Virus record (IMG/VR): IMGVR_UViG_3300022893_000003
Span: 1-35,687 of that record
Length of the DNA: 35,687 nucleotides
Strand: one strand, 5' to 3'
Source of the DNA: a virus
Taxonomy: Duplodnaviria; Caudoviricetes
This document shows, in pieces, positions 11-35,300 of this stretch. Positions within the stretch are counted from its first letter, which is position 1. Each line of letters begins with the position of its first letter. Below the pieces are notes generated by a model. The model was not told the DNA's origin and did no database searches. It worked only from the letters and a program-made list of their open reading frames with translations. A program made the position numbers and the translations under genes.

Positions 11-457
11 ATGGATGCTTATTACGCAAAGCAGCGCCATAAGCGAGAGGCGTGGCTGGACTCCTGGCTTCCAGTAACAAACATGAAAACTGTCTTTTGG
101 CCCTTGCAACAAAAGTGGATGCCTAACACCGGGGCACCTCCCTACGGGGCTAGCGCTGTCGGGCACTTTGGAGGCTTGGGGGGTGTATACCCAAACTCAT
201 ACCAGTTATCTGTAGGGTTATGCATCCCAGCGTCGGTGGTTTATCGGAATGAGAAAAACCCGCAGGCGCAGAGTAACGCGATTAGGGCTGCCATGGGAAC
301 CTTAGTAGAGTACGTGGAAAGTGGAAGGTTCCTGGCGGCTAACCTTAGTGCGGTGGACGCACAGCGAATTGAACTTGCAGTAATTCGAATTGCGGAGGAA
401 GAAGGATGGAAGAAGCCAGCGGAGACAAGCCAGCAGCAACACAGCCAAGCAAGTTAA
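11..457 (+). CDS. Hypothetical protein
   Basis: 148-aa ORF co-oriented with the operon. It overlaps the next ORF by about 50 nt and has no recognisable motif. Confidence 0.45.
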   Translation: MDAYYAKQRHKREAWLDSWLPVTNMKTVFWPLQQKWMPNTGAPPYGASAVGHFGGLGGVYPNSYQLSVGLCIPASVVYRNEKNPQAQSNAIRAAMGTLVEYVESGRFLAANLSAVDAQRIELAVIRIAEEEGWKKPAETSQQQHSQAS

Positions 458-1179
458 CGGCAGAGCAGTACGCGCTGGTAAGGTTCCTGGAACAAGCATT
501 TTGGCGTACAAGTGCGTTGCCTAGTTATGAAGCAATTGCTGCGGAGGGGACAGAACTAGACCAACAGTTGTACTTGGAAAGTTGGGAGAACCCTAGGTTT
601 GTTGACGCCTTGAGGGCTAGAGGGTTGCCTGAGCACGTCCTTAATACTAAGAGCGCGACAGGGCTGTCGGGTCGGAGTCTTACTGAACAGCAAATGACGG
701 TTGCTAATGTGCTACTGGATGTTTTGGACACTAGGAGCCGTATTAAGAAACTTACTGAACTTGGAGTACCGACTAGTACGTATAATTTGTGGTTACGTGA
801 TCCAGTGTATCGACAGTACTGCTTGGACCGTGCTGAATCTTTACTGGAAGATAACCAGCCAGTTGCACACATGAGTTTGATTAACCGCGTAAGTAGTGGA
901 GACTTAGGAGCAATTAAATACTTTAATGCAATGACTGGACGTTACCGGGAACGAGAGCGTGCTGCTGTCGAGGTCAACGTTAACCAGTTCGGAAGCGATA
1001 AGTTGATTCAGATTGTGGAAATTATTCAAAGGCACGTTAAAGATCCCGCTACCCTTGAGGCAATAGGAGCCGACATCTTATCCCTCAACAACCCAGCACA
1101 GGCGGCACGGCTGTCGGGCCCTTCCTATATGGGCGAACTTGTATACTCAAAGGATGAAGTGAATGACATCGCCATTTGA
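406..1179 (+). CDS. Helix-turn-helix protein, probable terminase small subunit
   Basis: LTEQQMTVANVLLD...KLTELGVPTSTYNLWLRDPVY resembles an HTH. It is followed by LINRVSSGDLGAIKYFNAMTGRY, as in TerS-like phage proteins. It lies upstream of TerL. Confidence 0.68.
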   Translation: MEEASGDKPAATQPSKLTAEQYALVRFLEQAFWRTSALPSYEAIAAEGTELDQQLYLESWENPRFVDALRARGLPEHVLNTKSATGLSGRSLTEQQMTVANVLLDVLDTRSRIKKLTELGVPTSTYNLWLRDPVYRQYCLDRAESLLEDNQPVAHMSLINRVSSGDLGAIKYFNAMTGRYRERERAAVEVNVNQFGSDKLIQIVEIIQRHVKDPATLEAIGADILSLNNPAQAARLSGPSYMGELVYSKDEVNDIAI

Positions 1180-1432
1180 TAGTAAAGAAAACTTAAATAA
1201 GCGTAATCATCCAACTGAGCCAGATTTGAGTTTTGATAGTCTGCACCACACGTTAGGACATGGTGCAACTCAGGCTGCACCGGGAAATCATAAGCATAAC
1301 GTTAAAGAGATTACAGGATTAGAAGAGACAACAACATTACTTGCTATTGTGCATGATGCTTTAAAGTCCTTACCGGGTGGGGCTGCTGCTCTTTCACAAG
1401 CCGCTTCTAGGATTAAAAAACCTACTAAGTAG
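1163..1432 (+). CDS. Small protein with a His-rich tail-fibre-type motif
   Basis: LHHTLGHGATQAAPGNHKH closely matches the LHHTIGTGANQAAAGNHTH repeat of 13689..14903. Confidence 0.68.
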   Translation: MTSPFDSKENLNKRNHPTEPDLSFDSLHHTLGHGATQAAPGNHKHNVKEITGLEETTTLLAIVHDALKSLPGGAAALSQAASRIKKPTK

Positions 1433-1457
1433 GGGGCTACATGTTGGGAGTTTATAA

Positions 1458-1793
1458 GTGCACAGGAATAGTGTTGGGCAGATTCTGGCAGGTGAATACT
1501 TATTTCTAGCATCAATGCCTAGTTTAGAAGGTGCACTTTGTTACGAAAACTCGATTAACCCAGAGTCTTACTTCCCTGTCAATACGCTTACTGGTGATAA
1601 TCGAGCGGCTCGAAAAGTTTGTAAGGGTTGTCCTGTACAAGAAGCGTGCCTGGATTACGCTTTAGAAAACCATATTAAGCATGGAATCTGGGGTGGATTT
1701 ACAAGCCCAGAGCGTGAAAGAATTCGATGGAAAAGGAGGCACAGTGAAGGAGGTAGCGCCATCCGAATCGGACTTCTTTCGGAGGATAGGTGA
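1458..1793 (+). CDS. whiB: WhiB-family Fe-S transcriptional regulator (start may be ATG 1515)
   Basis: Four Cys (ALC...KVCKGCPVQEAC), LDYALE and the GIWGG turn, followed by ERERIR and a basic tail. Confidence 0.92.
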   Translation: MHRNSVGQILAGEYLFLASMPSLEGALCYENSINPESYFPVNTLTGDNRAARKVCKGCPVQEACLDYALENHIKHGIWGGFTSPERERIRWKRRHSEGGSAIRIGLLSEDR

Positions 1794-9033: not shown

Positions 9034-9615
9034 GTGGCTACGCTGACGTACATCACCGTAACCGGCACTTACTTACGTCCGGACGGCATTACACCTAAAA
9101 TTGGATATGTTGAATTTCGTCCGACTGTACCACTATCTGTTAGTGGTACAGGCGTTATTGTTTCTGAACCTCTTCGGGCACAATTAGATATAAATGGACA
9201 TTTTGAAATTGAATTACTTTCAACTGGTGCTATTGATAATCCTGACTTATCTCCGACAGGGTGGCTTTGGTTTGTAGATGAAAAGATTCAGAATGGTAAT
9301 ATATGGTATTTAGGTTGTGACTCTAGTGGTCCTGACCCATTTGATATTAGTTATGGTTTTTACCCTCCGGGTGCTGCTGTCAGTCCTCCTGCTGTTATAG
9401 AGCCTGGTCCTGCTGGTATTAAGGGTGATAAAGGCGATAGAGGGTCGTTATGGTATGCAGGAGATATTGATCCGGTAGATGGTTCTTATAGACCGCAAGA
9501 TATGTATTTGAATGCTGTAAATGGTGATGTATGGTGGTATGCAGGCACAGGTGTAGAAGATGAGTATCCTTATGGATTCTACCCTTATGGCTCTGGTCCT
9601 TATGGAGGAAGTTAA
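9034..9615 (+). CDS. Tail fibre/minor tail protein, N-terminal part
   Basis: VTGTYLRPDG...G.V.F.P beta-sandwich start common in actinophage minor tail proteins, a short collagen stretch GPAGIKGDKGDRG, and DMYLNAVNGDVW. Confidence 0.72.
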   Translation: MATLTYITVTGTYLRPDGITPKIGYVEFRPTVPLSVSGTGVIVSEPLRAQLDINGHFEIELLSTGAIDNPDLSPTGWLWFVDEKIQNGNIWYLGCDSSGPDPFDISYGFYPPGAAVSPPAVIEPGPAGIKGDKGDRGSLWYAGDIDPVDGSYRPQDMYLNAVNGDVWWYAGTGVEDEYPYGFYPYGSGPYGGS

Positions 9616-12600
9616 TGGCTGTTCAGTTGCCGACTCCCGGTGAGGAGCCGTGGGGTGAAGAACTAAATGCTGCGATCAATAGTATTGACAGTAGGTTAGT
9701 TGTTGTAGAATCGGGTGTTGGAGGAGGGGGAGTTACTGACCATGGAATGCTTAGTGGATTAGCAGATAATGACCATCCTCAGTATCAAGTAGTTTCACAA
9801 AAAGGTATCGCTAGTGGTTATGCTTCTTTAGGTACTGATGGAAAGGTTCCTACAGGACAGTTACCAACTTCTAGTTCTGGGGGAACACTTCCTGCTGATT
9901 TATCTGGATCGTGGTATGCGGGCAGATATTGGTATTCTTTAGGAACGTCAATTACAATTGATGGTTCTTATACTAATAAACTTCGTGATGCTTCTGGTAT
10001 GGTTTTATTTAACAAAGGTGCAAGTGGTGGCACACTTTCTACAGCATCAAATGGTACTATATGGAATGCATTAGTAAATCAAGTTGGTACCGATGCAGAA
10101 GTTATTACAATTGAAACTATTAATGATTTTAGATTAAATGTACCTCTAGGAACTATAGGTGATGTTGCAGACCCATCTGTTTCTTACTATGGTGCATTAA
10201 GTGCTGCATGTGAGTGGACTTTATTTAATAGACCTGCTGCTCGTTTGTTTTTTCTTACAGCATATGGTGATGCCTATACTGGTGGTTATCCTAATGGTGC
10301 AACTCCAAATGCAAATGGTGATTGGTATTTTGACTTTAATGATGCAATGCATAAAGTTGGAAGTGTATACGGTGTTCCTGTTTTAAAGGTAGGTGAAGAA
10401 TCTGGAATTAATTATTATACTTGTCAGTTTTTTACTACTGACATGATTCATATGAATGCAAATGGTGGAACTCGTTATACAGAATATGTTTGGGCTAAAA
10501 TGCGTTCTATGGGTTGGATGACTTCTCGTCCAACTGCTCCGGGTGCAGCATCTCCTGTTCCTGTTACTGGAGTGAGTATTGTGCAAGGTTCTGTTGTTGC
10601 TATTGCACCAACACAGACTATGCAATTATCTGCTTCAATTACTCCATCTAATGCATCCAATAAGGGTGTAACATGGTCTACTAGTGATGCTACTAAGGTT
10701 ACAGTATCTTTGGATGGTTTAATTACTGGTGTAGCAACAGGTAGTGCTAATATTACAGTTACTACTGCTGATGGTGGATTTACTTCTGTTTGTAGTGTTA
10801 CTTGTGCTAATGCTGCTGTATCTAGTGTAGCCATTGCTCCTAAGACGTTTACTTTATTACCCTTTGAGACTCAGCAGTTAACCCCTACAGTGTTGCCTTC
10901 AAATGCAACTAATAAAGCAGTGACATATGCTAGTAATGCTACAGGTGTTGCAACAGTTAATTCTTCTGGATTGGTAACGGCTGTCGCGAATGGTTCTGCT
11001 ACTATTACTGTAACTACAGTGGATCAGGCTAAAACTGATACGGCTGTCGCTACTGTATCCTCTACTGTTCCTGTTACAGGTGTTGATCTTGTTCCTGCTT
11101 CGATAAGTGTTGTTTTAGGTGGAACTAGTCAGTTAACTGCTACTGTTCTTCCTGCAAATGCAACCAACAAGACTGTTACTTATGCTAGTGATAATACTGG
11201 AGTAGCAACTGTTAATTCTTCTGGGTTAGTGACTCCTGTGGCTGCTGGATCAGCAATTATTACAGTTACTACTACAGATGGTAGTAAGACAGATACGACA
11301 GCAGTTACAGTAGCAGCAAGTGATTGGAATCTTCGTAAGGCTACTGCATATGTCTCATTAGGTGTTACTGGTTTGACTGTTGACGGTAATAATGATCCTA
11401 CATGGAGTGGTACAACATGGGCTTACCCAGTTGTGTTCTTTAATGATATATTGGCTGGTGATAATGCTTGTGAGTTTGTTACAACTGGAAGTCCTGGACC
11501 AGGTGGATGGGTAGTTGTTGGTACAGATGGTGAGACATGTTTTGCTGCTATAGGTGACATTAATCCTGGTATTACACTAGAGGCTGTTCCTTCTGCTGCT
11601 GGTTTAGGTTCTACTTCTCCTGCTACTGGTCCAGATTATATTATTAACTCGCCAGCCGGACCATTAAGTAATGGTGTTAAATTCCGTATGGCCCGTGTTG
11701 GAGATATGTTCCATTGTTGGAAGTGGAGTGGAACAGTTTGGACTGAAATTACTCGTGTTGATCTTTCCGGTGCTAATCCTTCTGTTATTGCGTATAAAGG
11801 TCTTGGATTAATGATCGGAGGATCATACTCTAAGGTTCGTGATGTTTGGACTGGTACGTATCTTGCTGGGGCTCAGGTTCCATTAACAGGTATTTCAGTA
11901 GATCAACCTACATTAGGAATTACCGTAGGTGGTACTTCAGGTCTTAGTGTAACTTATAGTCCTGCTAATGCTACTAATAAATCAATGTCATGGTCTTCTA
12001 ATACGCCTTCTGTGGCTACAGTGAATGCAGCAGGTACAGTTACTGGAGTATCTGTAGGAACTGCTACTATTACTGGAACATCAGTAGATGGTAATTTTAC
12101 TGATACTTGCGTAGTTACTGTTACTAATCCTGCTTCTGAATGGGCACTCTCAGCACAGACTGTTTTCCGTGATAATAATTTAAATGGTGTAACTGCAACT
12201 GGTAGTGATCCTACTTATACTAGTGTAACTGCAGGAACTTATGGTGCATTATTAATTAATACGCCTGGACAAAATGCAATAGAGTTTACTATTGCAAATG
12301 GTGCTAACGGGCTTTGGCTTGTCCATGGTACTCATGCTACAGATGGTAATTTTGTAGGATTCGGAGACCTGACTGCAAGCGGTATAACTACTAATGGAGT
12401 GTTTACAGGTGGTGGTATTGGTTTAATTGGTATATCACCTGCTCAATCAACATCACCAGCATATGCTACCGGAAAGGTTTATCGCTTAGGGCGAAGCGGT
12501 ACAAGAGTTAAATTAGTACGAGTTGATCCAGGACCAACACTTGTAACTATTTGGGATGGTGATTTGGCTACTAATTTCCCAAGTAATGCAGCATGGTATG

Positions 12601-15151: not shown

Positions 15152-15152
15152 T

Positions 15153-21034: not shown

Positions 21035-21070
21035 CAGTTACGCAGCCAAACGAAAGGCAGGAAAAAAGTA

Positions 21071-21763: not shown

Positions 21764-21771
21764 GAGTAGAT

Positions 21772-22836: not shown

Positions 22837-22838
22837 TA

Positions 22839-25800
22839 ATGCCGGGTGCGTATGGGACATCAAGTGGCGGGCAATACCGGCCTCCTAAAGGTAATACAAG
22901 TCTTTCTCCTTATATAGCAAAACCTGTTAAATCTGTTAAATCTGAATACTACGCTAAACCTACGGCTATGACTGATCTGCCTGGATGGGCTAAAGAAATA
23001 CGGGCAGGCGCTAATTTCATGCCTATGAAGGTTAAGCCTATGTCTTACAACTATATGGCTATTGCTGAAGGTCCAAACCGCGCTGTGCCTTATAGTGCTC
23101 CGACAGCCACGCAAACTACCATTGGTAGCGCGTACTTCAAACCTACAGATGATGTGGCTGGTGGGATTAAGAAAGAGCATAATCTATGGCAGGACATTAA
23201 GAATCTGGGTGGAAATATTGTCCATAAGGGCGGCTCCTTACTCATGGGCGCTCTGGATGTTATCTCACGTCCAGGATATATGGTACGGAATTTATACAAG
23301 TCTAACTTAGAGAATTATTATTCTCAAGATGGAGATATTAATGGTTGGGAAGCCTTATTAGGCGTTATTGATACTATCACTCCTGTCGGGATTGTTAAAG
23401 ATTTAGCGACAGGGCATATGGATGAAAGGCTTAAGGCAGGCTGGGAGGGGCTGTCGGGTCAAAAAAAGACTTCGATGAAAGATATACTCAATTTTACGAA
23501 TCCTGAGTTTACAGAAAAACATAAGACAGCGACTAATATTTTATCGGTTATAGGTGACATTGCTACTGATCCTATTACTTGGGTTACTATGGGTGCAAAT
23601 CCTGGTAGTATTGCTAGGTTAGGTGGAGCAGGCGCTAAGTTAGCCATGGGTGATAAGATGGCTGCTGCTCGTCTATGGGAAGAAACTATCTTTACTAAGA
23701 CAGGGCGTGCAGCAGGTTTAAATGTAGTTAAGAGTGATATTAGGAATAGGGAGGCACGTCGTCTTGCGCGTAAAGGGCGAGGCGTAGATAAGCAGTTAAC
23801 TAAGGCAGAACAAGGTAAGAAAACTAAGTTAGATGCAGATGCACTTAGGGCTAAGAAAGTAGAGATTACACAGAGCATTAAAGATAAAATGGATGAAGAT
23901 TTACAAGGTGCTGCATTAGCGGCAAAGATTTTTAAGAAGAGTCTGCCTACTTTAGGTTTGACTACGCTTAGTAGGTTTAATACTGGAGCAGGAGCCTCGA
24001 CAGCACTCAAAGGTGAGGAAGCCCTTAAAGTTCTTAGTAATAATTTTCATGCAGGAGTTGCTAATAATCTTGAAGGTACAGATCGTTGGAAGGCTTTTTA
24101 TGTAGCCAATCAAGGTAGAGATTTTAGATATACGACAGAAACAGGTCATGTAAAAACAGTTAAATTATCTGAGGCTAAAAACCTTAAAGATTTTATTAGG
24201 ATGGTTTCAGAAGAAGCAAGTCCTATTGCTCGATATGCAGAATCAGGTGCTAAGGCTGCACGGAGTCGTAAAGGACGTAATGTTGCTGTTAGTGCCCGTG
24301 GACATACTTTCTTAAATCAGTTCAAGACGCATGTTGAAGATAATATGCTTATTGCTTTAAGTGATGATGCTACTCAAAAAGCATTTGATTCACATAGGGG
24401 TCTTTTAAACTTTATTGATAGTACACCTGCGGCTACAGATGATATGAAAGGTACTGATAAATTAATTAGAGTTAGTCAAGAAGATTTACTTGATGATGCA
24501 GTTGATACCTCATTTGATGCACTTGAAAGAGCGGCTAAGGGAGCGCGAGAGGCTTCCGGAAAAACAAACTTTAAAAAAGATAAAGCACATATTATGGTTG
24601 AAGGTATAGATGGTAAGTATCGTAAGGTAAGTATTAAGGCTGCCCGCGCGGCTGCTGAAACTGATAGTATTATTAGAAAAGCACGAATCGAACGTAGAGT
24701 TACTTTAGCACAACGTACTAAAGAGCAGTTGGCTACTGATAGAATTTCTGGAGTTTCTGATAACGTTGCTGTTGCTCGCGCTAATTTCTTAAAGGCTGCG
24801 GAGGCTGTTCGTGTAGCACGGGAAACTGGTGCTGATAATTATGAGGCATTGGCTAAGGCTAGAGAGGCTCTTGGTACAGCATTAGCAGATGTATCAAAGG
24901 CTACTAAGGGAGCATGGGAAAGTAAAGTTCCTGAAGAAGCCAAAAAAGTTTATAATAGTATGCGTGAAGTTCTTTACGATTCAGGAAACTTTACGACTGC
25001 TGAGCGCACTAAATACATGGCTATTCTTAAAGATACTAGTATGCCAATGGAAGAGCGTATTGCACTTATCCTTAGAGATAAGGATATGTCTAACAGTGAA
25101 GCACAGGAACTTTTAGGGGATGCCTTTAAAATTCATATCGACGAGGATGGTGTTATTCATGTTACTCGCGGTGGCGATCTTAGTCATATCCCTGAAATTA
25201 TTAAGGCTGTTATTCGTGATCGGTTTGCCCAGCGCATTGCTGGCGGACAGTCTGGTGTTAAATTAGAAGATAACCCCTTAGAAAATATCTTCCGAGTTGT
25301 GGCTGATGGTAAAAACCCTGATGCACCAGCCTATCTTCGTGATGTTAATGGCGAATTAGGCATGATGATTTTAGATGGTTATCGTGCGGCTGCTGAATAT
25401 GCAATGAAGAATGATTTATGGTCTGATCCTGAAATTCTTTTTGCTACAATCCATAACTCGATGAGTGAATTCACTAACCTACTGTCAGCAGACATGAAGG
25501 CTCAGGTTGGACAATTTTTATACAACACGACAGGGCTGCGACTTCCTGACGAGTTCGTACCTAAGTTTACAGATATTATTGACTTATTAAGTAATAAAAA
25601 GATGGTGTGGAGAAATGCTGATGGTAAACCTGGTAATCAGGAGATACCATGGCAAGAATTCGGTATGCAGATGCAGCGTTGGTTAATTGGTAGTTCAAGT
25701 GAGAAAGGTTTATTCAAAGGTATTTTTGATGTAAGAACACTACCAGGCGCTAAAACTGGTCACGATATGGTAGACCTTTTAAATCAAATTACTTTTAAAG

Positions 25801-28800
25801 CACTTCATGTCGATATTGATGTTCCTGGAACTACTCCTGAACATATTAATGCTATTAATAGTATTACGGAAAGTATTAGGTATCTTGAAGGTTTAGTTGC
25901 TCCTGCTCCGGTCAATGGTGTGACTGGTTCTGTTAATCGCTACAGCATGACTGATTTTATGATGCATGCTAGGGAAATCATAGCAGCACATAAAAAGCCT
26001 ACCACTCTTCCTGGTGGTAAAGCAGGCGCAGGTCGGCTGTCGGCTCTTGATTCTTTTACATACGCAGATGAGAGAACTGTAGCAGCGCTAGAGAAATTAG
26101 ATCAACTTAGAGTACTTAGTGCTCAAAAGAATGACCCTATACTTGCTGAATTAGCACAACGACAGTTGTCAGCACTATTTATTAAGCATGGTGGTATTGA
26201 TATTGTTAAAAGTGTTACTATGCCTCCTAGCGGTAATTTGGCTGATCTTGATTTTGGTAAGCCCTTCAGTACACTAGGTGCACATGCGCGTATGAAAGAA
26301 GGAATGACTAATCGAACTGGCTTTGGTACTAAGCGTCATGCTGACTTAATGGAATCAATGTGGGGACAACAGACTCTTGTACATGAATGGCAGAAGGCTT
26401 TCCAGAATCAAATCTTGGATGAGGTCTTTGTAAAAGGTCGCACTATTCAGCAAGCAGGACGCAGACTTCAAGAGAATATTGATGCTGCCTTTGGTCCTTA
26501 TGAGAACATTAAGAAGCGAATCTATCCTACTAAAGGAGCCATCAATAAGGACTTGGCATTGGAAGGTAATGTTAGGCCCCCTGTCGGAGAGCCTGATATT
26601 GGCGCAAAAGCCGCAGCACCTCATGTAGAAGCCCTTATAGGTGTTAGGAAGGCTCAAGAGGATTTAGAGACAGCCCGAGCCAATCTTACTACTGCTGTTG
26701 ATAAGGTAAAGAATGCTGGACCGATTGATGATCCTACATTATTAGCCAATTTAAAGAAGGCTCAAACAGAATATGAAGAGGCTAAATTAGCAGAGAGTTC
26801 TAAGGCTGCTGCAACTGGTGAAGAAGGTAGTGTTGCTACAGGTCCGACAGAAGACCCTACAGATGTTGCTAATGTAGGTGTTGGACCACTTAATTTTACT
26901 GATGAAGAGAAGGAAGTAATCCGTAAGTATATCAGTTCAAGTTATGCGGGCGCTTCCCCACAGAAGGTTGCGAAGCAACTTCATGCGCTTAGCATGGCTA
27001 TTTCATCTGATGTATGGGCAGCACAAGCAGAACTTAATACAGCCCTTCAAGACTTTAGTATTAAATATGGTGCTAGTGTAAAATTTATGGGTATCCCATT
27101 CATGCCTATGGTTAACCCAATGAACGCTACTCATACTATTGCTGGTGTAATGCGTCTGGCTGAAGAAACTTCAAAGGCTACTAGATTCTTCGGTACTCTT
27201 TATGGTCCAGAGGCTAAGACTAGTTGGGGCGTACAGGCTCATAAATATCTGACTAAGCGTAGCCATGTTAATGAAGGTACGCTTGATCAACTCAGTACGT
27301 CAGTTATTAACTATGCTAGCATGACTAGGCAAAGAGTCTTTGCAGAGTTAGACGATCTATATAAGATTGCAGTTGAACAGACTGAATATTTAATTCCTCA
27401 AATTAATGCTATGAGCAGAAAAGATAAGTTTGCGTATATTAGGACACAGATTTTTACTCCTTCACAAGCAGGCGTACCTGACGCGCTTGAGCAATTTAAA
27501 TTAGCAGATGGTTCTAATCCAGTTCGAGAAATTGTTGCTAATATGGATACAAACGCTACCCGTGCGTTTGTTAGGTCAGCAGATGCAGGAACTAGAAAAG
27601 AGGAAATCTTAAAGTTTAATAGATATATGGATAAAGAGTATAGACTTGATGATATTATAGATATCAATATTATTGAGACTGCTATGAAGCCCGGAGGCGC
27701 TTTAAGTGATCCTACTCTTGTACCTTATACAAGAGAATGGTTCCAAAAGGTAGGACAACTTCCTGGTTCTGAAAAGTTTTCTACTAAGGAACTTTTAAAG
27801 ATTAATCTTGGGGCTCTTCAAACTGCTTTACATGATGCTAAAATCAAGATGTATGCAGGAGATAAACTACATAATGGTGTATTTGCACAGTTTTCATTTA
27901 AACGAAGTCCTACCGAAGTTGCAATGTATAATACTAAAGTTGTTCCTCAGATGTTAGATGTCAATGGAAAGCAATTACGTGGTAGATTAGTTAGTGTTGA
28001 TGATCTTCAAAGACTTGGTATTCCTGACAAGAATATCCCAGCAGCATTTAAAAAAGGTGGCTACTATATAGAAGAAGAGTTTGTTTCAGATATCAAAGTT
28101 TTGTTTGATTTTATGGATAACAAGCATAATCTAAATACAAATATTGATATGCAGGCTATAGATAAGATTCTTTCTAAGTTCAAGGCTAGTGTTACTATTT
28201 ATAAGGTTCCTACATACCCTGTACGTAACCTTATTGGTGATACTTTTATGTCAGCAATGGATGGATTGGTTGACCCAAGATATTATGGTGATGCTGCTGC
28301 TCTTATGCGTGATCACCATGAAGTTATGAAAGGTATTAATTTAGATGAACACGGTGAATTTATCAATCAATCATACTTGCAAAGAGAAATTGCTAGAGCA
28401 GCACACGATCCAGCAGTTGCCCCTGACGCACCTATTAACCCTACACCATTTAATCTTACACTTAAATTAATTGATGGTGATATTAAAATTAATGGCTCTC
28501 AGATTATGGATTCTTATTATCAATTAGGTTTAGGACAGAACCATACTTCTGGTGTTATTAATGAGTCTGTGGCTTCAGCACGACAAACACAGTGGGGTAA
28601 GAAGTTAGGTAAAGTCCATGATGGTTTAAGGGATTTGAATACAGTCCGTGAGGATTGGAGTAGGCTTTCTCATTTCCTTTATGCTATTGAGCGTGAAGCA
28701 CCTTTAGGTGGAACATACGAAGACGTTATTCGTAGGGCTGGTAATAGGGTAATTAAGTATCATTTTGATTATAATGATATTTCTATTTTTGATAAAGCAA

Positions 28801-29627
28801 CACTAGGTAGGGCTATCCCATTCTATAAGTGGGTTAAGAATATTGTTCCCTTTACTATTGCTAATTTAGTAACTAAACCTTGGGCTATTAAAGTTGAGTC
28901 GGGACTTAATAGTACTCTTAGTTATCTTATTGATGATGATAAAGGTGATACTCGTAAAGACTTCGTTGTTCCTGAATGGATTGAATTTGACTCGGCTGTC
29001 CCCATTGGATCATATAAAGATGAGAACGGCTATGAGTTTGGACAATGGGCTAGTATGTATCTTCCTATGTCAGATACTTTGAAGCGTACCCTTGGCCCTA
29101 TTTTCCAACCAGCAGTGGACCCCATGGTAAAAAATAAACCACTTGCTATAGGTGGAGGCGCCATTACTGTTGGTATGAGCATGATTAATCCTTTATACAA
29201 AGGTGCTGTTCAGGCTGCGACAGGTGAAGAAATTTGGCCAACAGGTGGAGCACCTGAAAAGGGTAGTTGGTTCTCTACTATGGCTAGTGTTATTCCTGGT
29301 TACTCAAGTATTGATCCTTACATCAAATCTATTGAAAAATATGCAGGTGATAAGAATGCTGGGATACAAGGTAAGAATACTCTAGGAAGTTTACTGGAGG
29401 AGTTAGGTGCTATCAATGTACACAATAATTCAGAAAATGCACAGTTAGGTGAACTCAAGCGCAGAGAAGACTATTACCGTCCACAGTTGAATCAGCAAAA
29501 AGCAGAGTTAATGAATAAGATTGGAAAGAAGTATCCAGAAACGACAGCCGATGAACGTAAAATGATTGTCGATGAGTTTCTTAAGATGACACGCAGCGCT
29601 GATCCAGAAAGGTTGACAGCACGCTAA
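22839..29627 (+). CDS. Large internal virion (ejection) protein, 2262 aa
   Basis: Size and position. ALDVISRPGY and IGDIATDPITW near the N-terminus; PTYPVRNLIGD, EDWSRL and HFDYNDIS...RAIPFYKW near the C-terminus, as in podoviral DNA-transfer proteins. Confidence 0.8.
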   Translation: MPGAYGTSSGGQYRPPKGNTSLSPYIAKPVKSVKSEYYAKPTAMTDLPGWAKEIRAGANFMPMKVKPMSYNYMAIAEGPNRAVPYSAPTATQTTIGSAYFKPTDDVAGGIKKEHNLWQDIKNLGGNIVHKGGSLLMGALDVISRPGYMVRNLYKSNLENYYSQDGDINGWEALLGVIDTITPVGIVKDLATGHMDERLKAGWEGLSGQKKTSMKDILNFTNPEFTEKHKTATNILSVIGDIATDPITWVTMGANPGSIARLGGAGAKLAMGDKMAAARLWEETIFTKTGRAAGLNVVKSDIRNREARRLARKGRGVDKQLTKAEQGKKTKLDADALRAKKVEITQSIKDKMDEDLQGAALAAKIFKKSLPTLGLTTLSRFNTGAGASTALKGEEALKVLSNNFHAGVANNLEGTDRWKAFYVANQGRDFRYTTETGHVKTVKLSEAKNLKDFIRMVSEEASPIARYAESGAKAARSRKGRNVAVSARGHTFLNQFKTHVEDNMLIALSDDATQKAFDSHRGLLNFIDSTPAATDDMKGTDKLIRVSQEDLLDDAVDTSFDALERAAKGAREASGKTNFKKDKAHIMVEGIDGKYRKVSIKAARAAAETDSIIRKARIERRVTLAQRTKEQLATDRISGVSDNVAVARANFLKAAEAVRVARETGADNYEALAKAREALGTALADVSKATKGAWESKVPEEAKKVYNSMREVLYDSGNFTTAERTKYMAILKDTSMPMEERIALILRDKDMSNSEAQELLGDAFKIHIDEDGVIHVTRGGDLSHIPEIIKAVIRDRFAQRIAGGQSGVKLEDNPLENIFRVVADGKNPDAPAYLRDVNGELGMMILDGYRAAAEYAMKNDLWSDPEILFATIHNSMSEFTNLLSADMKAQVGQFLYNTTGLRLPDEFVPKFTDIIDLLSNKKMVWRNADGKPGNQEIPWQEFGMQMQRWLIGSSSEKGLFKGIFDVRTLPGAKTGHDMVDLLNQITFKALHVDIDVPGTTPEHINAINSITESIRYLEGLVAPAPVNGVTGSVNRYSMTDFMMHAREIIAAHKKPTTLPGGKAGAGRLSALDSFTYADERTVAALEKLDQLRVLSAQKNDPILAELAQRQLSALFIKHGGIDIVKSVTMPPSGNLADLDFGKPFSTLGAHARMKEGMTNRTGFGTKRHADLMESMWGQQTLVHEWQKAFQNQILDEVFVKGRTIQQAGRRLQENIDAAFGPYENIKKRIYPTKGAINKDLALEGNVRPPVGEPDIGAKAAAPHVEALIGVRKAQEDLETARANLTTAVDKVKNAGPIDDPTLLANLKKAQTEYEEAKLAESSKAAATGEEGSVATGPTEDPTDVANVGVGPLNFTDEEKEVIRKYISSSYAGASPQKVAKQLHALSMAISSDVWAAQAELNTALQDFSIKYGASVKFMGIPFMPMVNPMNATHTIAGVMRLAEETSKATRFFGTLYGPEAKTSWGVQAHKYLTKRSHVNEGTLDQLSTSVINYASMTRQRVFAELDDLYKIAVEQTEYLIPQINAMSRKDKFAYIRTQIFTPSQAGVPDALEQFKLADGSNPVREIVANMDTNATRAFVRSADAGTRKEEILKFNRYMDKEYRLDDIIDINIIETAMKPGGALSDPTLVPYTREWFQKVGQLPGSEKFSTKELLKINLGALQTALHDAKIKMYAGDKLHNGVFAQFSFKRSPTEVAMYNTKVVPQMLDVNGKQLRGRLVSVDDLQRLGIPDKNIPAAFKKGGYYIEEEFVSDIKVLFDFMDNKHNLNTNIDMQAIDKILSKFKASVTIYKVPTYPVRNLIGDTFMSAMDGLVDPRYYGDAAALMRDHHEVMKGINLDEHGEFINQSYLQREIARAAHDPAVAPDAPINPTPFNLTLKLIDGDIKINGSQIMDSYYQLGLGQNHTSGVINESVASARQTQWGKKLGKVHDGLRDLNTVREDWSRLSHFLYAIEREAPLGGTYEDVIRRAGNRVIKYHFDYNDISIFDKATLGRAIPFYKWVKNIVPFTIANLVTKPWAIKVESGLNSTLSYLIDDDKGDTRKDFVVPEWIEFDSAVPIGSYKDENGYEFGQWASMYLPMSDTLKRTLGPIFQPAVDPMVKNKPLAIGGGAITVGMSMINPLYKGAVQAATGEEIWPTGGAPEKGSWFSTMASVIPGYSSIDPYIKSIEKYAGDKNAGIQGKNTLGSLLEELGAINVHNNSENAQLGELKRREDYYRPQLNQQKAELMNKIGKKYPETTADERKMIVDEFLKMTRSADPERLTAR

Positions 29628-30229
29628 TGGCTGACTATGCGGACTTCCTCCGACAGGTAGCATTACCGCAGAATGCTGCACGCCTTCAAGCCGGTGATGC
29701 GATTACTGAACAGTTAATACAATCTATTAAAAATAGGTCTGCCCCTGTCGTGTCAGGATCAAGTGGCGGGTCTAATAGAGGTGGTGGTGTTAGTGGTAGT
29801 TCGTCTTACAAAGGCCCTCTTAATTTACCCGCGATGGGTGGTAAGCGTCTTCCGACAGGGGCGCGTGTTAGTCAAGGCTGGGGTAAATCACGTATCTCAT
29901 ACGCTGCGGGTCGCCATACTGGAATGGATTTTGGCGGAGCCCATGGCTCTCGTATCAGTGCAGCCGCGTCTGGAGTTGTCACTAGGGCCGGAGGCGAAGG
30001 CGCTTATGGAAATGCTATCCACGTTCGCCATAAAGACGGCACGACAGCCTTATATGCTCATCTTTCTGGGATTAATGTCAAAGCAGGACAGCGAGTTAGC
30101 GCCGGACAAGCAATTGGTAGAATGGGAAGCACAGGACGTTCAACAGGTACACATCTTCATTTCGAAATAAGGAAGCAGGACCGTTACGGTGGAGACATTA
30201 ATCCGCGATCGTGGTTCGCTACCCGCTAA
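29627..30229 (+). CDS. M23-family metallopeptidase
   Basis: HTGMDF (HxxxD), YGN, YAHL, IGRMGSTGRSTGTHLHFE (HxH) and INP. Confidence 0.93.
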   Translation: MADYADFLRQVALPQNAARLQAGDAITEQLIQSIKNRSAPVVSGSSGGSNRGGGVSGSSSYKGPLNLPAMGGKRLPTGARVSQGWGKSRISYAAGRHTGMDFGGAHGSRISAAASGVVTRAGGEGAYGNAIHVRHKDGTTALYAHLSGINVKAGQRVSAGQAIGRMGSTGRSTGTHLHFEIRKQDRYGGDINPRSWFATR

Positions 30230-30231
30230 AT

Positions 30232-30276
30232 AGAAAAAGCCCCCTATCATTTCAATGAATGATAGGGGGCTTTTCT
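30232..30276. terminator. Bidirectional rho-independent terminator
   Basis: AGAAAAA-GCCCCCTATCAT-loop-ATGATAGGGGGC-TTTTCT between convergent operons. Confidence 0.92.
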
Positions 30277-30280
30277 GGTG

Positions 30281-30409
30281 TTAGCGTAGTTCAACGCTAA
30301 CATCCTTGTTCGTTATACGAACAATCTTAATCGGGTGATCCTTTTTGGGGACTGGCCGAGGTCGTCGAGTACTACGGGGTAGGGGCCTACGGGCTGTCTG
30401 AGTGCTCAT
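30281..30409 (-). CDS. 42-aa basic peptide (not in ORF track)
   Basis: MSTQTARRPLPRSTRRPRPVPKKDHPIKIVRITNKDVSVELR*. Fills the gap between the 30414 stop and the terminator. Confidence 0.5.
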   Translation of the reverse strand: MSTQTARRPLPRSTRRPRPVPKKDHPIKIVRITNKDVSVELR

Positions 30410-30413
30410 ACCC

Positions 30414-30869
30414 TCATTCTAGACCCAGACCCTTGAGAATGTCAAATACGTCCTGTGAGAGGGCTGGGACGGGCCTCTGGGGGGCCTCTGGGGGTGTCTC
30501 TGGGCTAACGGAAGGCAAACCATCAAGCAGTTCTAAAGCGTCAGGAGGAACTACTAACGGCTCAGCGTAGTTATAATTCCACTGCTTACCAGCATTAACG
30601 ACCCACTCCCATTTAATTCCAATTTTTTCGAGGGCTGCGGCTCGGCATATATTAGAACAATAAGCAACCTGTCCATACGTATGAGCGAACACGCGGTTGC
30701 AGATAGTACAGTGTTTGCGATTGAAGTAAGATGCATCTTTGAAATAAGCAAGTGTAGCCTCCGCTTGTCGTGAGATTTCTTCTTCTGAATCATATATAGT
30801 ACTGCTTGGTGGTGGTGGCTCAATACCTAGGATTGCTGCTAACTTTTCTGCATCACTTTGCTTGCTCAT
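30414..30869 (-). CDS. Zinc-finger-like hypothetical protein
   Basis: CTIC...YCSNIC; overlaps the end of the resolvase gene. Confidence 0.75.
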   Translation of the reverse strand: MSKQSDAEKLAAILGIEPPPPSSTIYDSEEEISRQAEATLAYFKDASYFNRKHCTICNRVFAHTYGQVAYCSNICRAAALEKIGIKWEWVVNAGKQWNYNYAEPLVVPPDALELLDGLPSVSPETPPEAPQRPVPALSQDVFDILKGLGLE

Positions 30870-31281
30870 CCTTCATCCTTTGGATTGCTGGGATTGGTAA
30901 TCCTAATACTTTATGGTTGTAATGTACTAAATGTGCATAGGCGTCTGTAGCGTGACTAAGATCGTGATCCTTCGGCACCTTAATTCCAGCCCATTTATAT
31001 CCGATGGACTTAATTGCTGGCTCTTGGAAAACTACCTTCACCCCTAATTCAAAAGCCCGAAACTCGATTGCACCAATGATTCGGATAGTGTTCATTTCAT
31101 TCCAGGAAAAGTTCACTCCCGGTCTGATCTTGAAGTTCTCTACAATAAAGAGACTAGGCTCGGTAGCAAGAAGGTGAACAAAAAATGCCTTCTTATCTAC
31201 CGAGCCATAACCAATTAATGTACCATTGTCTTCACACATGGCATAACCAGTAGTATCACCCGGATCGAGTGCTAGTCTCAT
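30853..31281 (-). CDS. RuvC-like Holliday junction resolvase
   Basis: LALDPGDTTGYA, IVENF and HATDAYAH acidic catalytic pattern. ATGA overlap with the polymerase stop. Confidence 0.82.
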   Translation of the reverse strand: MRLALDPGDTTGYAMCEDNGTLIGYGSVDKKAFFVHLLATEPSLFIVENFKIRPGVNFSWNEMNTIRIIGAIEFRAFELGVKVVFQEPAIKSIGYKWAGIKVPKDHDLSHATDAYAHLVHYNHKVLGLPIPAIQRMKDEQAK

Positions 31282-32993
31282 CCCCACTCCTTGCCTGACA
31301 CCTTGAATGGAACCTTGAAGAAGTCAGTAGGAAGGCTCTCCATTTCATGCGTGATTAATTTGGAGTAATCTTCCAGCATGTCTTCACGGATTTCAAACAC
31401 TAACTCATCATGGATCTGCAACAGCAGTATGCAGTTGTCGTCGCAAACATTCTTGTCAATGTTGACCAAGGCTCGCTTAACTACCTCTGCTGCTCCCCCC
31501 TGTAACAGGGCGTTCCATGCCTTATATGAATCGTCAGGGATCATATGACGCCGGCGCCCAGTCCAGTAGCGGATGTAGCCGCGCTGTCGTGCTTTTACTT
31601 CCGCTAACCGCTTTGCCTTCATAATTCCAGGAATAGTGTTGAGGAAGGTTAAGTAGTCAGGCTCAACTTCTTCTTGTGTCTTCCTGAGAATCTTGGCAGT
31701 CTTAGCCAGACCAGCGCCGTACATTACTCCGTAGGTAAAGGTCTTGGCTGTAAAACGATCTGTATTGATCCTTTGTGAGAGAGCCGTGAAGGGATCAGAT
31801 TCTTCCTTGCTAAACTCTTCAATAAGCCATTGCTCGTTACCATATGCCGCTGCCAAACGAAGTTCCAATTGACTGTAGTCAAATCCAACCAATCGGAATC
31901 CGGATCGTGCCTTAAACGCAGTTCGAATTCTACCATTCCAAGCCTTGTCAGACTGACGAGGTATTTGCTGGAGGTTTGGCTCCGCACAACTGAGGCGACC
32001 AGTGGATGTGCCATGCTGCTTGTAGTTGCAATGAATTTTAGATTGGGAATCTGCCAAACGCTGGAATGGTGTATAAAAACTGGTAGCAGCCTTTTGCCAT
32101 CCTCTGTAATCCAAGACAAGTTGTGCTCGATGGTCCCCAGTTTGCCCAAGGAGACGTTCATAATCCTCCATCACATTCTTTGTCATTGCTGGCTTACCAC
32201 CAGGGGTTTCTGCCAGTATTGGTAACTTGAGTTCTTCGAATAAAAACTTCGACAGCGCTGTAGACTTACTAGCCTCGAAGCCCAACTCTTCTGTAATTTG
32301 ATCCATTTCCATTTCTGCGATAGCAGCGTACTGGCGACAGAATTTTTGATCTACCTCGATGCCCCTTCTCTCCATCCTGAACAGTGCATCGTTCATAGCC
32401 AATTCCCATGACCATAGTTCATTTGCCTTCTCGCCAAACTTCTTCTGGAAGAGAGGCCAGACATGCTCCCATAATTCTAAGGTAACTTCGGCGTCTGCCT
32501 CAGCGTATGGTCCGATCAAATCAGGCGTAAGATTCTTCCAACCAAAGACCTTAGCAAACCGCGCTACCTCATCCTTAAGGTACTTGCCTCGCTTGATATA
32601 GGTTTTGCCACATGCATCCAGAGACTTCTCATAAGGACGATTCTCATTCAGCATATGGCATATAAGCATGGTATCGTAACCAGGCATAGGGCTAATAGGA
32701 AGTATCGTATTGAGGCTGTGAAGATCGAACTTACGATTATGGAATACAATAGACTTATCCAGAAGACATCCCATAAGGTCATCTAACACCAACCTATCAA
32801 GGTTCACCCCTGTCGGGTGTCGGAAGGGGAAGTACTGACTGTATACCTGTCCGTCAGCCCCACGGTAAGCCAACGACAGCCCCATGAGGTAGTCGTCACC
32901 TTCCTTAACACGTAACCCCGTTGTCTCCGTGTCAAGGGCTACAACAGTCGCATGCTGTAGCCCTGACAGGAAACCCTTAGTCCTTACGTCCAT
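31278..32993 (-). CDS. polA: DNA polymerase, family A, with 3'-5' exonuclease (571 aa from ATG 32993)
   Basis: Exo I DTETTG, Exo II FHNRKFD, Exo III YAEADA, TGRLSCAEPNLQQIP, motif A DYSQLELR, motif B RFTAKTFTYGVMYG, motif C QIHDEL. Confidence 0.96.
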   Translation of the reverse strand: MDVRTKGFLSGLQHATVVALDTETTGLRVKEGDDYLMGLSLAYRGADGQVYSQYFPFRHPTGVNLDRLVLDDLMGCLLDKSIVFHNRKFDLHSLNTILPISPMPGYDTMLICHMLNENRPYEKSLDACGKTYIKRGKYLKDEVARFAKVFGWKNLTPDLIGPYAEADAEVTLELWEHVWPLFQKKFGEKANELWSWELAMNDALFRMERRGIEVDQKFCRQYAAIAEMEMDQITEELGFEASKSTALSKFLFEELKLPILAETPGGKPAMTKNVMEDYERLLGQTGDHRAQLVLDYRGWQKAATSFYTPFQRLADSQSKIHCNYKQHGTSTGRLSCAEPNLQQIPRQSDKAWNGRIRTAFKARSGFRLVGFDYSQLELRLAAAYGNEQWLIEEFSKEESDPFTALSQRINTDRFTAKTFTYGVMYGAGLAKTAKILRKTQEEVEPDYLTFLNTIPGIMKAKRLAEVKARQRGYIRYWTGRRRHMIPDDSYKAWNALLQGGAAEVVKRALVNIDKNVCDDNCILLLQIHDELVFEIREDMLEDYSKLITHEMESLPTDFFKVPFKVSGKEWG

Positions 32994-33180
32994 AGTTCTC
33001 AATAGCCTCAACGATACACTTACCAGAGCAAGCGAAAACCTTACCTCCGCTGCCACCAAACTCATGGTGCCAGAAGAAATCAATGTGGATTCCAAGAGCA
33101 GGGTCGCCACCCTTACGTTCGATTGATTCACTGCCACAGGCATCACAAACCCAGACAATAACAGTTTCTCTCATCTTCAT
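32977..33180 (-). CDS. Small zinc-binding protein
   Basis: CDAC...ACSGKC with an AAGGA RBS just after the primase stop. Confidence 0.72.
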   Translation of the reverse strand: MKMRETVIVWVCDACGSESIERKGGDPALGIHIDFFWHHEFGGSGGKVFACSGKCIVEAIENYGRKD

Positions 33181-33189
33181 TACTCTTCC

Positions 33190-34923
33190 TTAGATTCCAT
33201 AAGGGTTAGTCTCTTCTTGAGACTTGCCAATTCTTGATTTACTAGTGATGATTGTGGCTACTTCATCCGCTGCAAGACGGGTGAAATGTAACCCTTCCGT
33301 GCGCTTGATGTACCAATCCTCTTCTTGCGGCGCGAGGCGCTTCTTAAGTTCTCGGACCTTAAGTACGTTAGTTTTAACAGGCCAGAGTGAGAGTATGGTT
33401 GTGGCGCGCGCAGTGATGTACTGCGATCCGTATACGTCAGCCAAACCGGATGGCTCTTTATTGTTTTCTGTTGCTTTACGGTTATGATGGATGAACCACG
33501 AAAAAACACCCATCTCTTTCCGAAAGGTGTCATTGAAATCCAAAAGAACTTTGGTGGATTCTTCGTCCGTGAGAGCCTTGTTTGTAGCCGATCCGAGTGA
33601 GTCGAAGATAATCCCATCAACTTTGAGTACATCTACAATCCTTTTCAACTTGTCTTGTTCTGGTTTAGTATTCAGATACATCGGCTCCCCTGTCGGGAGA
33701 ACGTAGAAGTGCTCCGACAGAAGCGCCTGTAGTTCAGGTGTGTCGTACTTCTTATTCATCTGTGAAATGAATACCTTAAGGTCAACCGGACCCATTTCTG
33801 CACTGATAAAAAGTATACGTCGTGGTTTTCCGTCGTCCGATGAGTAGCCAAGAACATCTTTTCCTGTGGCGAGCCCGTATGCAAAGTTAAGGGCAACTTG
33901 AGTTTTGCCGACACCAGGTGGTCCCACAAGGAGCATGTTACCCCCTGACTGTAAAAGGCTCGGGAGAAGCCAGTCAACTTCGATGGCAAGGTTATTGAAT
34001 GATACGACATCATATACGTCAATGGAGAATTCTTGTTCTTCCTCCAACTTAATCGGGTACTTAACTCGTACTCTTTCAATGATATCAAGTAGTCGTCGGT
34101 GACGATCTGTACGCTTAGTGTACTTGTGCCACCGATCATCGGCGTTTCGAATGATCGTATAAATTTCTTCATTAGTGCAACCTGCTTCCGCTGCCATGTA
34201 TCCCACACGCATCAGGCTGGATGATCTATGGCCTTCTGTTGGAGTTGAAGTGAATAGTTCTCTAAAGTGTTCAGGTAGTGTGTACTTGTAGATTACATCC
34301 ATCACATCAGGGATTTGCCCTAATTTGATGCTATCTTCTTCCAGTCTGTCCGGTGCTTGGAAAACAGAAAAGGCACCGATATTGTATACGGTGCCATTGA
34401 CTTCGCTAACTACAACAGGCATATCGCGCTTGTAGTTATGCGTTTCCGGTGGACGGAGGATTTGTGTACAATCCCAACCTGACTGGTCTGCGCTGAGACT
34501 AAAGGTTAGTGCCCGGTTGACTTCTTCCAAGTCTCTTGCGTTAGTTATAGGCTCATCCAAAACCCAGTAACTATGAGTATAACCGGCATTAGAAGAAGTA
34601 ATAACCACGCTAGGCACAGGATCAATGTTATCAGGAGCGTTCCCGTCGTGTTCGCACCAGACAACGCGGCTTGCTGCGAAACTTCCTTTTGTCGCTTTCG
34701 GAATCGAAAAGACAGCCGGTGCGAGATATACGTCAGTATGCTTCATTTGTTCTTTGATGTAGTCATATAATTTGTCCAACTTATCTGTTTTGACAAAGAC
34801 TTGATTGAATTCACCTGTTTCACGATTAAGGTTGGGGGCATAGATATAACCCTCAATCCCATGATAAAGCAGATTGAGCATGTTTTGTAGCGTGATCATG
34901 TTTGTTTGATGGACGGGTTGCAT
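33190..34923 (-). CDS. Primase-helicase: RepB-like (AEP) primase fused to a RecA/AAA_25-type helicase
   Basis: VYLAP, VWCEHD, PSVVITSS...HSYW and ILRPPETHNYK in the primase; Walker A GPPGVGKT, ISAE, IIFDSL, IHHNRK and YGS in the helicase. AAGGAGG RBS. Confidence 0.88.
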   Translation of the reverse strand: MQPVHQTNMITLQNMLNLLYHGIEGYIYAPNLNRETGEFNQVFVKTDKLDKLYDYIKEQMKHTDVYLAPAVFSIPKATKGSFAASRVVWCEHDGNAPDNIDPVPSVVITSSNAGYTHSYWVLDEPITNARDLEEVNRALTFSLSADQSGWDCTQILRPPETHNYKRDMPVVVSEVNGTVYNIGAFSVFQAPDRLEEDSIKLGQIPDVMDVIYKYTLPEHFRELFTSTPTEGHRSSSLMRVGYMAAEAGCTNEEIYTIIRNADDRWHKYTKRTDRHRRLLDIIERVRVKYPIKLEEEQEFSIDVYDVVSFNNLAIEVDWLLPSLLQSGGNMLLVGPPGVGKTQVALNFAYGLATGKDVLGYSSDDGKPRRILFISAEMGPVDLKVFISQMNKKYDTPELQALLSEHFYVLPTGEPMYLNTKPEQDKLKRIVDVLKVDGIIFDSLGSATNKALTDEESTKVLLDFNDTFRKEMGVFSWFIHHNRKATENNKEPSGLADVYGSQYITARATTILSLWPVKTNVLKVRELKKRLAPQEEDWYIKRTEGLHFTRLAADEVATIITSKSRIGKSQEETNPYGI

Positions 34924-34938
34924 CTTACCTCCTTAGCG

Positions 34939-35010
34939 TACCCCCAGCAGGATTCGAACCTGCGACCCACTGATTAAAAGTCAGTTGCACTACCGCTGTG
35001 CTATGGGGGC
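34939..35010 (-). tRNA. tRNA-Lys (anticodon UUU), CCA not encoded
   Basis: The minus strand folds into a cloverleaf: GCCCCCA/TGGGGGT acceptor stem, GCAC/GTGC D-stem, ACTGA-CTTTTAA-TCAGT anticodon arm, GCAGG-TTCGAAT-CCTGC T-arm. Confidence 0.93.
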
Positions 35011-35068
35011 AAAAAGACCCGACAGGGGCGGCTCGGGGAAGTAGCCAACCCCTGTCGGGAGTTCTTTT
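35011..35068. terminator. Long stem-loop with A/T tracts on both sides, abutting the tRNA 5' end
   Basis: CCCGACAGGGG (35018-35028) pairs with CCCCTGTCGGG (35049-35059), with an inner GGCT/AGCC pair. AAAAAGA and TTCTTTT flank the stem. Confidence 0.75.
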
Positions 35069-35300
35069 ATTCTTCTATAGCAGGCGCAAGATGAATAGCA
35101 ACTGCTGCATTAGCCCACATTTGGGCCTCCTGCAATGCAGTCAGCGCTAAAGACTTCTCACGGCTGTCGGGAAGAACTTTAGTGTAATGCTGCGCTAAGG
35201 ACTCACTCTTAATTCGAATTTCCCTATGCATAGGACCAGTAATATCAGTCCTTGCATGAAAAGCGAATCGGTTGTGGATTTCCTTATCGTCAGTGCTCAT
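35067..35300 (-). CDS. Acb2/Tad1-like helical-hairpin protein (putative nucleotide-signal sponge)
   Basis: PDSREKSLALTALQEAQMWANAAVA matches the conserved C-terminal helix pattern of Tad1 and Acb2 (SRE...ALT..EEA.MW). Confidence 0.7.
   Translation of the reverse strand: MSTDDKEIHNRFAFHARTDITGPMHREIRIKSESLAQHYTKVLPDSREKSLALTALQEAQMWANAAVAIHLAPAIEE

Follow-up and report, generated by a model that had tools for sequence, protein, structure and literature searches.

An eight-base word, CTGTCGG(G/A), with the core CTGTCG, was found in large excess in the tailed-phage genome IMGVR_UViG_3300022893_000003 (Caudoviricetes), and it is very probably the site that the phage's own RepB'-type primase-helicase, encoded at 33190-34923, recognises in the template, its copies being dispersed putative priming sites. 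The analysed stretch (positions 1 to 35,687, hereafter the window) represented 35.7 kb of a 44,180-bp contig, of which about 8.5 kb lies outside the window. This reading is carried by the enrichment itself, by its independence from codons and from transcription direction, by the architecture of the enzyme, by the way in which word and enzyme track each other among phages, and by a site density that is kept while positions turn over. The window comprised the greater part of a podovirus-like phage, including genes for a terminase, a P22/SU10-type portal, an adaptor, WhiB, Pol A and tRNA-Lys. Judging from capsid, primase and polymerase, its closest cultured relatives were Arthrobacter phages Jasmine and Adat, Microbacterium phage Shocker and Cellulosimicrobium phage DS1, and by inference its host is actinobacterial. 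Jasmine is described as a podovirus with terminal repeats (PMC5513430); it and Adat have Arthrobacter ATCC 21022 as laboratory host.

The full word occurred 29 times in the window (19 on the + strand, 10 on the - strand), exactly as counted by hand in the earlier note, which was made from the sequence alone; further copies of the core, put there at about 25, numbered 32. With 61 copies (34 on +, 27 on -), CTGTCG was the top over-represented hexamer, 9.0 being expected under an order-2 Markov model. Two null schemes of 1000 runs each were applied to 38 hand-chosen gene models. The 59 core copies inside genes compared with 11.7 (maximum 21) after synonymous shuffling within genes and with 13.9 (maximum 27) after context-preserving shuffling; for the 27 full words inside genes, the corresponding values were 2.4 (maximum 8 in 1000) and 2.1 (maximum 7 in 1000). 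The enrichment thus survived the codon-preserving check that had been proposed for it. An artefact of composition or codon usage would explain the roughly 12 to 14 in-gene core copies that correspond to background; with z scores of 12 to 47 across both schemes, and none of the 1000 shuffles at half the observed count, its probability is practically nil as an account of the whole. The word was read in several frames across the gene models, and core sites were enriched in both sense (33 vs 4.9 in shuffles) and antisense orientation (26 vs 7.4), in agreement with the earlier suggestion that neither protein sequence nor transcription direction drives it.

The 5' C was required for enrichment, GTGTCG, TTGTCG and ATGTCG all remaining at shuffle level. 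A preceding CC or GG, previously described as the usual context, was found at 36 of the 61 core sites, CG or GC preceding merely three. Two composite forms of the site were tried and rejected: the palindromic dimer CGACAG-NN-CTGTCG was a single case (661-/664+), and the mini-hairpin CC-(CTGTC)-GG failed as a unit since GG-preceded sites lack a following CC. A weak second word, (C)TAGTGTT/AACACTA(G), was present in 21 copies vs 5 expected after masking of the main motif. The window also avoided restriction-type palindromes (GTCGAC, CTCGAG and GGATCC absent, CTGCAG once, GGTACC twice) and was depleted in GGCC.

The proposed reader of the word is a protein of 577 aa. Its structure was predicted with a local distance difference test score (pLDDT) of 91.7 over the full length and of 94.7 for residues 5-292 alone; this N-terminal part was folded separately because Pfam did not recognise it and a full-length fold search returned only helicases. 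In Foldseek, the N-terminal half displayed three matches below 1e-3, namely RepB' 3h20 (E 4e-10), S-2L PrimPol (E 7e-9) and RepB'-ssiA (E 1e-6), and the RepB' match spanned both catalytic domain and helix bundle (310 columns). An exhaustive structure search yielded Z scores of 19.0 for S-2L PrimPol, 16.5 and 16.3 for RepB' and 5.4 for NrS-1; the all-helical residues 205-290, constituting the helix bundle, moderately matched pRN1 (Z 6.3) and PriX (Z 6.0). The C-terminal half matched DnaB and RSF1010 RepA, the latter being the best solved-structure profile match. The enzyme is thus a fusion of two parts, a primase of RepB' type and a helicase of RepA type. Residues D93, H117, D146 and R157 were invariant in 98 aligned of 271 homologues, and E91 was invariant or nearly so; they would correspond to acidic motif I (E91/D93), the histidine of motif II (H117), acidic motif III (D146) and the conserved arginine (R157) of archaeo-eukaryotic primases (AEPs).

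Some relatives displayed a split primase (L091, L096, L163, L168-L171, L175, L177, L178, L180-L184, L186, L187, L190-L195, L197, L198, L200, L202, L205, L206, L212). The split point was common to all, at profile position 181/182, and separated an AEP catalytic gene from a helix-bundle-plus-helicase gene, sometimes 250-450 nt apart. This is a natural two-subunit form, and its tested members keep the TGTCG word. Many homologues in Microbacterium, Gordonia, Mycobacterium and Serratia phages carry the GenBank label 'RecA-like DNA recombinase'.

Ten GenBank genomes from three host phyla were picked for carrying the primase (CPAS-15 being represented by the first 50 of its 51.8 kb). Among 2080 hexamers, the best NTGTNG word ranked first in seven of them, second in Martin, third in CPAS-15 and seventh in Shocker, and an NTGT[ACG]G word figured in the top three in nine of the ten. 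Podoviruses displayed CTGTGG (Jasmine, 101 seen/16 expected), CTGTAG (ctEqG8, 98/28) or CTGTCG (DS1, 116/28; Shocker, 84/45). GTGTGG prevailed in the tape-measure phages Serratia Tlacuache (58/15), Pseudomonas Lebethron (90/23), Gordonia Hexbug (84/25), Microbacterium Martin (65/23) and Mycobacterium phage Muddy (71/23), and ATGTGG in the tail-sheath Clostridium phage CPAS-15 (55/18). Enrichment in related phages, proposed earlier as a test, was seen in nine of ten phages, the word itself usually being a sister form and CTGTCG recurring in DS1. Seven control phages without a primase-domain profile match (four covered over 50 kb of 58-61 kb) had best ranks of 11, 34, 36, 54, 98, 208 and 299. 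They included D29, which shares with Muddy the host M. smegmatis, and three phages of Jasmine's host strain, CapnMurica, Galaxy and Kitkat; CTGTGG was seen 13/23, 20/15 and 18/33 times in these three, and GTGTGG 29/27 times in D29. Ten loci with a helicase-motif match only ranked between 4 and 502, none exceeding a -log10 p of 3.0; a weak match of this kind, L005, had TTGTAG at 9/1.3.

Eighty primase loci or genomes of at least 9 kb, near-duplicates included, were scored for 16 words, and 70 passed p<1e-3 for one of them (45 CTGTAG, 9 CTGTCG). As this cut is loose and near-duplicates were retained, the argument rests on rank and word identity. A search of the literature, supplements and most subscription papers lying outside its scope, found none of these words described for the phages concerned; the accessible portions of PMC5513430 and PMC7302621 do not mention them, those of the latter describing other, intergenic motifs. 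Two further words were noticed among relatives. CTGTAAAG(G), which begins with CTGT, occurred 45 times in Shocker vs 0.13 expected, on both strands and in some cases just upstream of start codons, with one copy in Shocker's nearest primase relative, L159. In locus L097 a further family of 8-mers, centred on ACCGTGGC/GTGGCGGA, was in excess (about 24 copies, 1-1.5 being expected).

The word might instead be a host signal, either a decoy for the DNA-damage activator PafBC or a host Chi-like protection site, as had been proposed; the PafBC consensus, tGTCgg(N10)tA(N3)T (PMC8635444), includes TGTCGG, and the nearest cultured relatives infect actinobacteria. The full consensus was found at none of the 38 TGTCGG copies, the second half being absent at all 38 (TA at N10 in two, both inside a gene); the sites are intragenic and the enriched unit needs its 5' C. 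Comparison of phage genomes further revealed different words within one host strain (Jasmine vs CapnMurica, Galaxy and Kitkat; Muddy vs D29) and GTGTGG in common among Serratia, Pseudomonas and actinobacterial phages. Both forms of host signal are thus extremely unlikely.

The sites themselves were only partly conserved. The closest relative, L006 (87 % identity over 9.4 kb), retained 12 of 16 sites, the corresponding fraction of matched hexamers being 0.47 (p 0.02); site 664 was lost there and has a replacement a few bases upstream. In L008-L010 (about 71 % identity), 3 of 10, 4 of 12 and 4 of 12 sites were kept against a background of 0.12-0.15, and the same stretches held 10, 12 and 11 sites, so density was kept and most positions had moved. 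Site density thus counts for more than the place of each site, which fits redundant sites of priming and does not fit operators. An operator or stoperator for a phage factor would find candidate readers in WhiB and the TerS-like helix-turn-helix (HTH) protein, both encoded in the window, and the pair 661-/664+ is palindromic; a packaging signal was considered alongside. Against these stand the turnover of positions and the location of 59 of the 61 core sites inside genes, sense and antisense, with no excess near gene starts (9 of 61 within 100 nt vs a 21 % background). The numbers of opposite-strand pairs (142 and 148) were close to the 125 expected by chance, sister words occurred in phages of tape-measure and tail-sheath type whose virion genes are unrelated, and podovirus ctLwi270, which has a related capsid protein and no such primase domain, lacked the word. 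Such a regulatory or packaging role is very improbable.

The + bias claimed earlier, said to persist in the minus-strand genes, was non-significant in the window (full word 19:10, p=0.14; core 34:27, p=0.44), and the minus-strand gene block contained five core sites on each strand. The Okazaki-scale spacing of about 1.2 kb likewise dissolved, being a figure that pooled both strands: per strand, the full word was spaced by 1.9 kb (+) and 3.6 kb (-) and the core by 1.05 kb (+) and 1.3 kb (-), the latter values matching the density of a T7-like array (about one site per one to a few kb per strand). Core spacing in the window was no evener than random (coefficients of variation 0.94 and 1.29), and one of ten per-strand tests of evenness fell below p=0.05. 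Even spacing was encountered on both strands of Jasmine and on the + strands of Muddy, Hexbug and Shocker (CTGTCG), and was not found in DS1, Tlacuache, Lebethron and CPAS-15. Words by strand in pooled podoviruses were 167:111 in + gene blocks and 91:81 in - blocks, and in other phages 188:61 and 91:79, figures in which coding and strand effects are mixed and a replication-direction bias is confounded with the coding strand. Sites occurred throughout both strands, with a coding-strand component and an at most weak genome-strand component, and a single unidirectional fork is therefore not indicated. The hairpin at 35011-35070 folded strongly (z -4.5) and was considered as an origin; however, only 7 of 80 loci had an inverted pair in the 600 nt upstream of the primase gene, and opposite-strand pairs were near chance. 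A terminator or a processing stem next to tRNA-Lys is the likelier role of this hairpin.

Variation within the helix bundle was compared with the middle letter of the word. On a first tree of 70 of 91 primases (near-duplicates, partial and split ones excluded) this letter changed seven times, and in the discovery set all 10 rows with a C word had Y at position 268, against F in 33 of the 37 with an A word. The Y268 prediction was fixed before fresh loci were analysed; of 107, 88 had the bundle, 51 of which were less than 85 % identical to the first set, forming 35 clusters, 26 of at least 7 kb. Fresh loci with Y268 had 16 C, one A and one G word, those with F268 six A words, no word twice and never C. 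On an 85-row tree built without column 268, from which split primases dropped out, the C word had five origins, all with Y268, and Y268 separated four of the five from their sisters. Two close sisters, L046 and L048, illustrate this, the former having Y and CTGTCG, the latter F and CTGTAG. Over 76 labelled loci it was present in 28 of 28 C rows and 6 of 48 non-C rows, a Matthews correlation coefficient (MCC) of 0.85; no other column, in the primase or in six protein families encoded nearby, scored higher. Other best columns scored 0.78 (helicase part), 0.72 (catalytic domain), 0.68 (Pol A) and 0.59 (RuvC-like) and, on fewer rows and origins, 0.77 (Cas4-like), 0.80 (AAA), 0.84 (SNF2) and 0.76 (a small open reading frame). 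From these alignments Y268 looks necessary but not sufficient for the C word; the link is suggestive, and Tyr268 may allow C to be read at the variable position. There is roughly an even chance that this widespread RepB'-RepA fusion family writes its own priming map into both genome strands and that word and enzyme evolve together by a legible code, a Phe-to-Tyr change at 268 permitting the switch from GTAG to GTCG (at least five times) before dozens of intragenic sites are rewritten. If so, primase specificity and the residues behind it would be readable from genome composition alone.

Several observations weigh against assigning the word to the primase, or its middle letter to residue 268. 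Pol A, a Cas4-like nuclease, an AAA ATPase and an SNF2 helicase are regular companions of the primase, and co-occurrence by itself therefore does not distinguish it from them. Ten of the 80 primase loci had no word at p<1e-3, and four of the seven control genomes passed that loose cut with some other word. The top word of Shocker was CTGTAAAG, outside NTGTNG; L007, L105 and L106 displayed no excess site conservation (1/8, 1/9 and 0/5); and the window had no significant lagging-strand asymmetry and no even spacing. The Y268 link was chosen after the fact, and Y268 is insufficient alone, as its six non-C loci indicate. Among the 16 fresh C loci, 12 were split-primase relatives and three belonged to the basal C group, only L130 being clearly a new origin; an independent-pairs test gave a median p of 0.25 with too few pairs; and the best SNF2 column nearly equalled Y268 (36 rows, tracking one of two origins). 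Finally, phage R233-S234...M238 aligned weakly to R309-S310...W314 of pRN1 (M238 to W314: probability 1.1 %, E 0.048).

A rival reading is that another protein of the replication and recombination module reads the word, which would serve as a Chi-like attenuation or self-protection signal for a Cas4/RecB-like nuclease, or as a helicase loading or pause site. The corresponding genes accompany the primase in word-bearing genomes, the word itself lacks symmetry, occurs on either strand and is not evenly spaced in the window, and the gene set is partial as part of the contig lies outside it. On the other side, D29 (Pol A and Cas4 nuclease, DnaB-like helicase) and Kitkat (RecB-like nuclease and AAA ATPase) lack the word, the Pol A and RuvC-like columns separate C less well than Y268 does, the nuclease, AAA and SNF2 alignments having covered only two to three of the five C-word origins, and the frame of the word matches measured AEP sites. 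Recognition by such a neighbour is unlikely. Recognition by the primase, one of the options listed in the earlier note, gained from the RepB' fold, from sister words that follow the enzyme across host phyla and from this same frame.

Beyond enrichment, architecture and co-distribution, we infer a sequence of steps. With about one copy of the word kept per kb per strand, exposed single strands would be primed at short intervals. The helicase would expose the single-stranded template, the helix bundle would bind 5'-GTCG(GR)-3', by analogy with pRN1 and NrS-1, and the AEP domain would make a short primer with A as first nucleotide. By the same analogy, the primer would start opposite the T just 5' of GTCG, giving pppA-G-(GG or CC); in the alternative RepB' register, starting at the T inside the GTG triplet, it would be pppA-C-A-G. 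Phage Pol A would then extend the primers. Sites on the + strand are predicted priming sites when + is the single-stranded template, and since sites lie on both strands, both may serve as primed templates, in bidirectional forks, recombination-dependent forks or repriming. A word-bearing oligonucleotide sequence is CCCTGTCGGG.

Sequence specificity is so far known for few AEP primases, all from in vitro work. The present reading, if true, would supply predicted words (GTCG, GTAG, GTGG) for a large phage primase family, often labelled 'RecA-like recombinase' in GenBank and including cultured Jasmine, Muddy, Hexbug and Martin. It would also supply one candidate specificity residue and a case of a protein co-evolving with about 60 intragenic sites, and synonymous recoding or engineering of such phages could remove priming sites.

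Table 1. Word sites, primase-helicase domains and adjoining features in the window.
Feature	Position	Strand	Remarks
Full word, 19 sites	first base 156, 664, 1111, 2698, 3891, 8368, 8840, 14197, 14296, 15894, 16004, 16119, 23383, 23451, 26581, 32810, 33690, 35052, 35164	+	span 156..35171; word count
Further core CTGTCG sites, n=15		+	word count
Full word, 10 sites	5' C at 9259, 14127, 16884, 20187, 23106, 26850, 29656, 29858, 33720, 35025	-	span 9252..35025; word count
Further core sites, n=17	from 661 to 32879	-	word count
Primase-helicase, 577 aa	33190..34923	-	RepB'-type AEP, helix bundle and RepA-type (SF4) helicase; proposed word reader
AEP catalytic domain, residues 6-189	34357..34908	-	E91/D93, H117, D146, R157 conserved
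Helix-bundle domain, residues ~205-290	34054..34311	-	M238 codon 34210-34212; Y268 codon 34120-34122
RepA/DnaB-type helicase domain	33274..33981	-	AAA_25; Walker A GPPGVGKT
Family A DNA polymerase with 3'-5' exonuclease	31278..32933	-	start codon uncertain; putative primer extender
tRNA-Lys(TTT)	34938-35010	-	flanked by hairpin of two motif copies
Intergenic hairpin	35011..35070	.	11-bp stem of two inverted full sites (35025-, 35052+); adjoins tRNA-Lys

Three further features of the window were recorded. Within the replication module, the 77-aa product of 35067-35300 (-) contained a hairpin domain of Acb2/Tad1 type (E 9e-16) and is by this match a candidate anti-defence nucleotide sponge. A perfect 17-bp inverted repeat at 30235-30274, between convergent gene blocks, is likely a bidirectional terminator. 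A 2262-aa protein without Pfam match (22839-29627, +), followed by an M23 peptidase gene, is likely an ejection protein, judged by its position.

Among systems with known sites, the primase of pRN1 (ORF904) also joins an AEP domain and helix bundle to a helicase. It primes only at GTG, starting just 5' of the triplet (PMC2965215), and phage words fit the resulting C-T|G-T-N frame. In its nuclear magnetic resonance complex with template C1-T2-G3-T4-G5, residues S310, Y352, T356 and K359 hold G5 and W314 stacks (PMC13469122); template position 5, contacted by the helix bundle, is the variable position among phage words. Position 268 could not be mapped onto any pRN1 contact, and position 238 was W in six NTGTGG enzymes of siphovirus or myovirus type, all from one clade. 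The phage word differs in being longer (SS-CT-GTCG-GR), in having C instead of G at the third recognition position and in being spread over the genome, and the phage helicase is of RepA/SF4 type with a separate Pol A. NrS-1 prefers GTGG/GTGA, starting at the first base upstream, and also uses the site 5'-TTTGGTTA-3' (PMC8718748). It differs in being itself a polymerase and in its lower structural similarity (Z only 5.4), and GTCG and GTAG are not among its reported best sites.

RSF1010 provided the best Foldseek match for the N-terminal half (RepB') and the best solved-structure profile match for the helicase (RepA); the first primer nucleotide is A opposite T, as predicted for the phage, and the spacing of phage D146/R157 equals that of D134/R145 (for sequence-specific monomeric AEPs and the RepB' family, see PMC10250227 and PMC5862659). 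On ssiA, RepB' begins its primer with dATP at T32, within a GTG triplet (PMC8567376), a register different from that of pRN1 and NrS-1. RSF1010 has two single 40-nt hairpin sites, a leading-strand mode and separate proteins (PMC8567376), whereas in the phage primase and helicase are fused and about 60 short sites are dispersed without a conserved hairpin. An RSF1010-type ssi site was accordingly rejected, given 61 dispersed short sites and the scarcity of inverted pairs upstream of the primase gene (7 of 80 loci, as above). The phage arrangement also resembles that of T7, where the gp4 primase is fused to an SF4 helicase, has a Pol A partner and uses short sites with preferred 5' flanks, 5'-(G/T)(G/T)GTC-3', gp4 being a TOPRIM/zinc-finger primase and not an AEP. 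By analogy with these systems, the phage word most likely works like the recognition sites of pRN1 and NrS-1 and the primase sites of T7.

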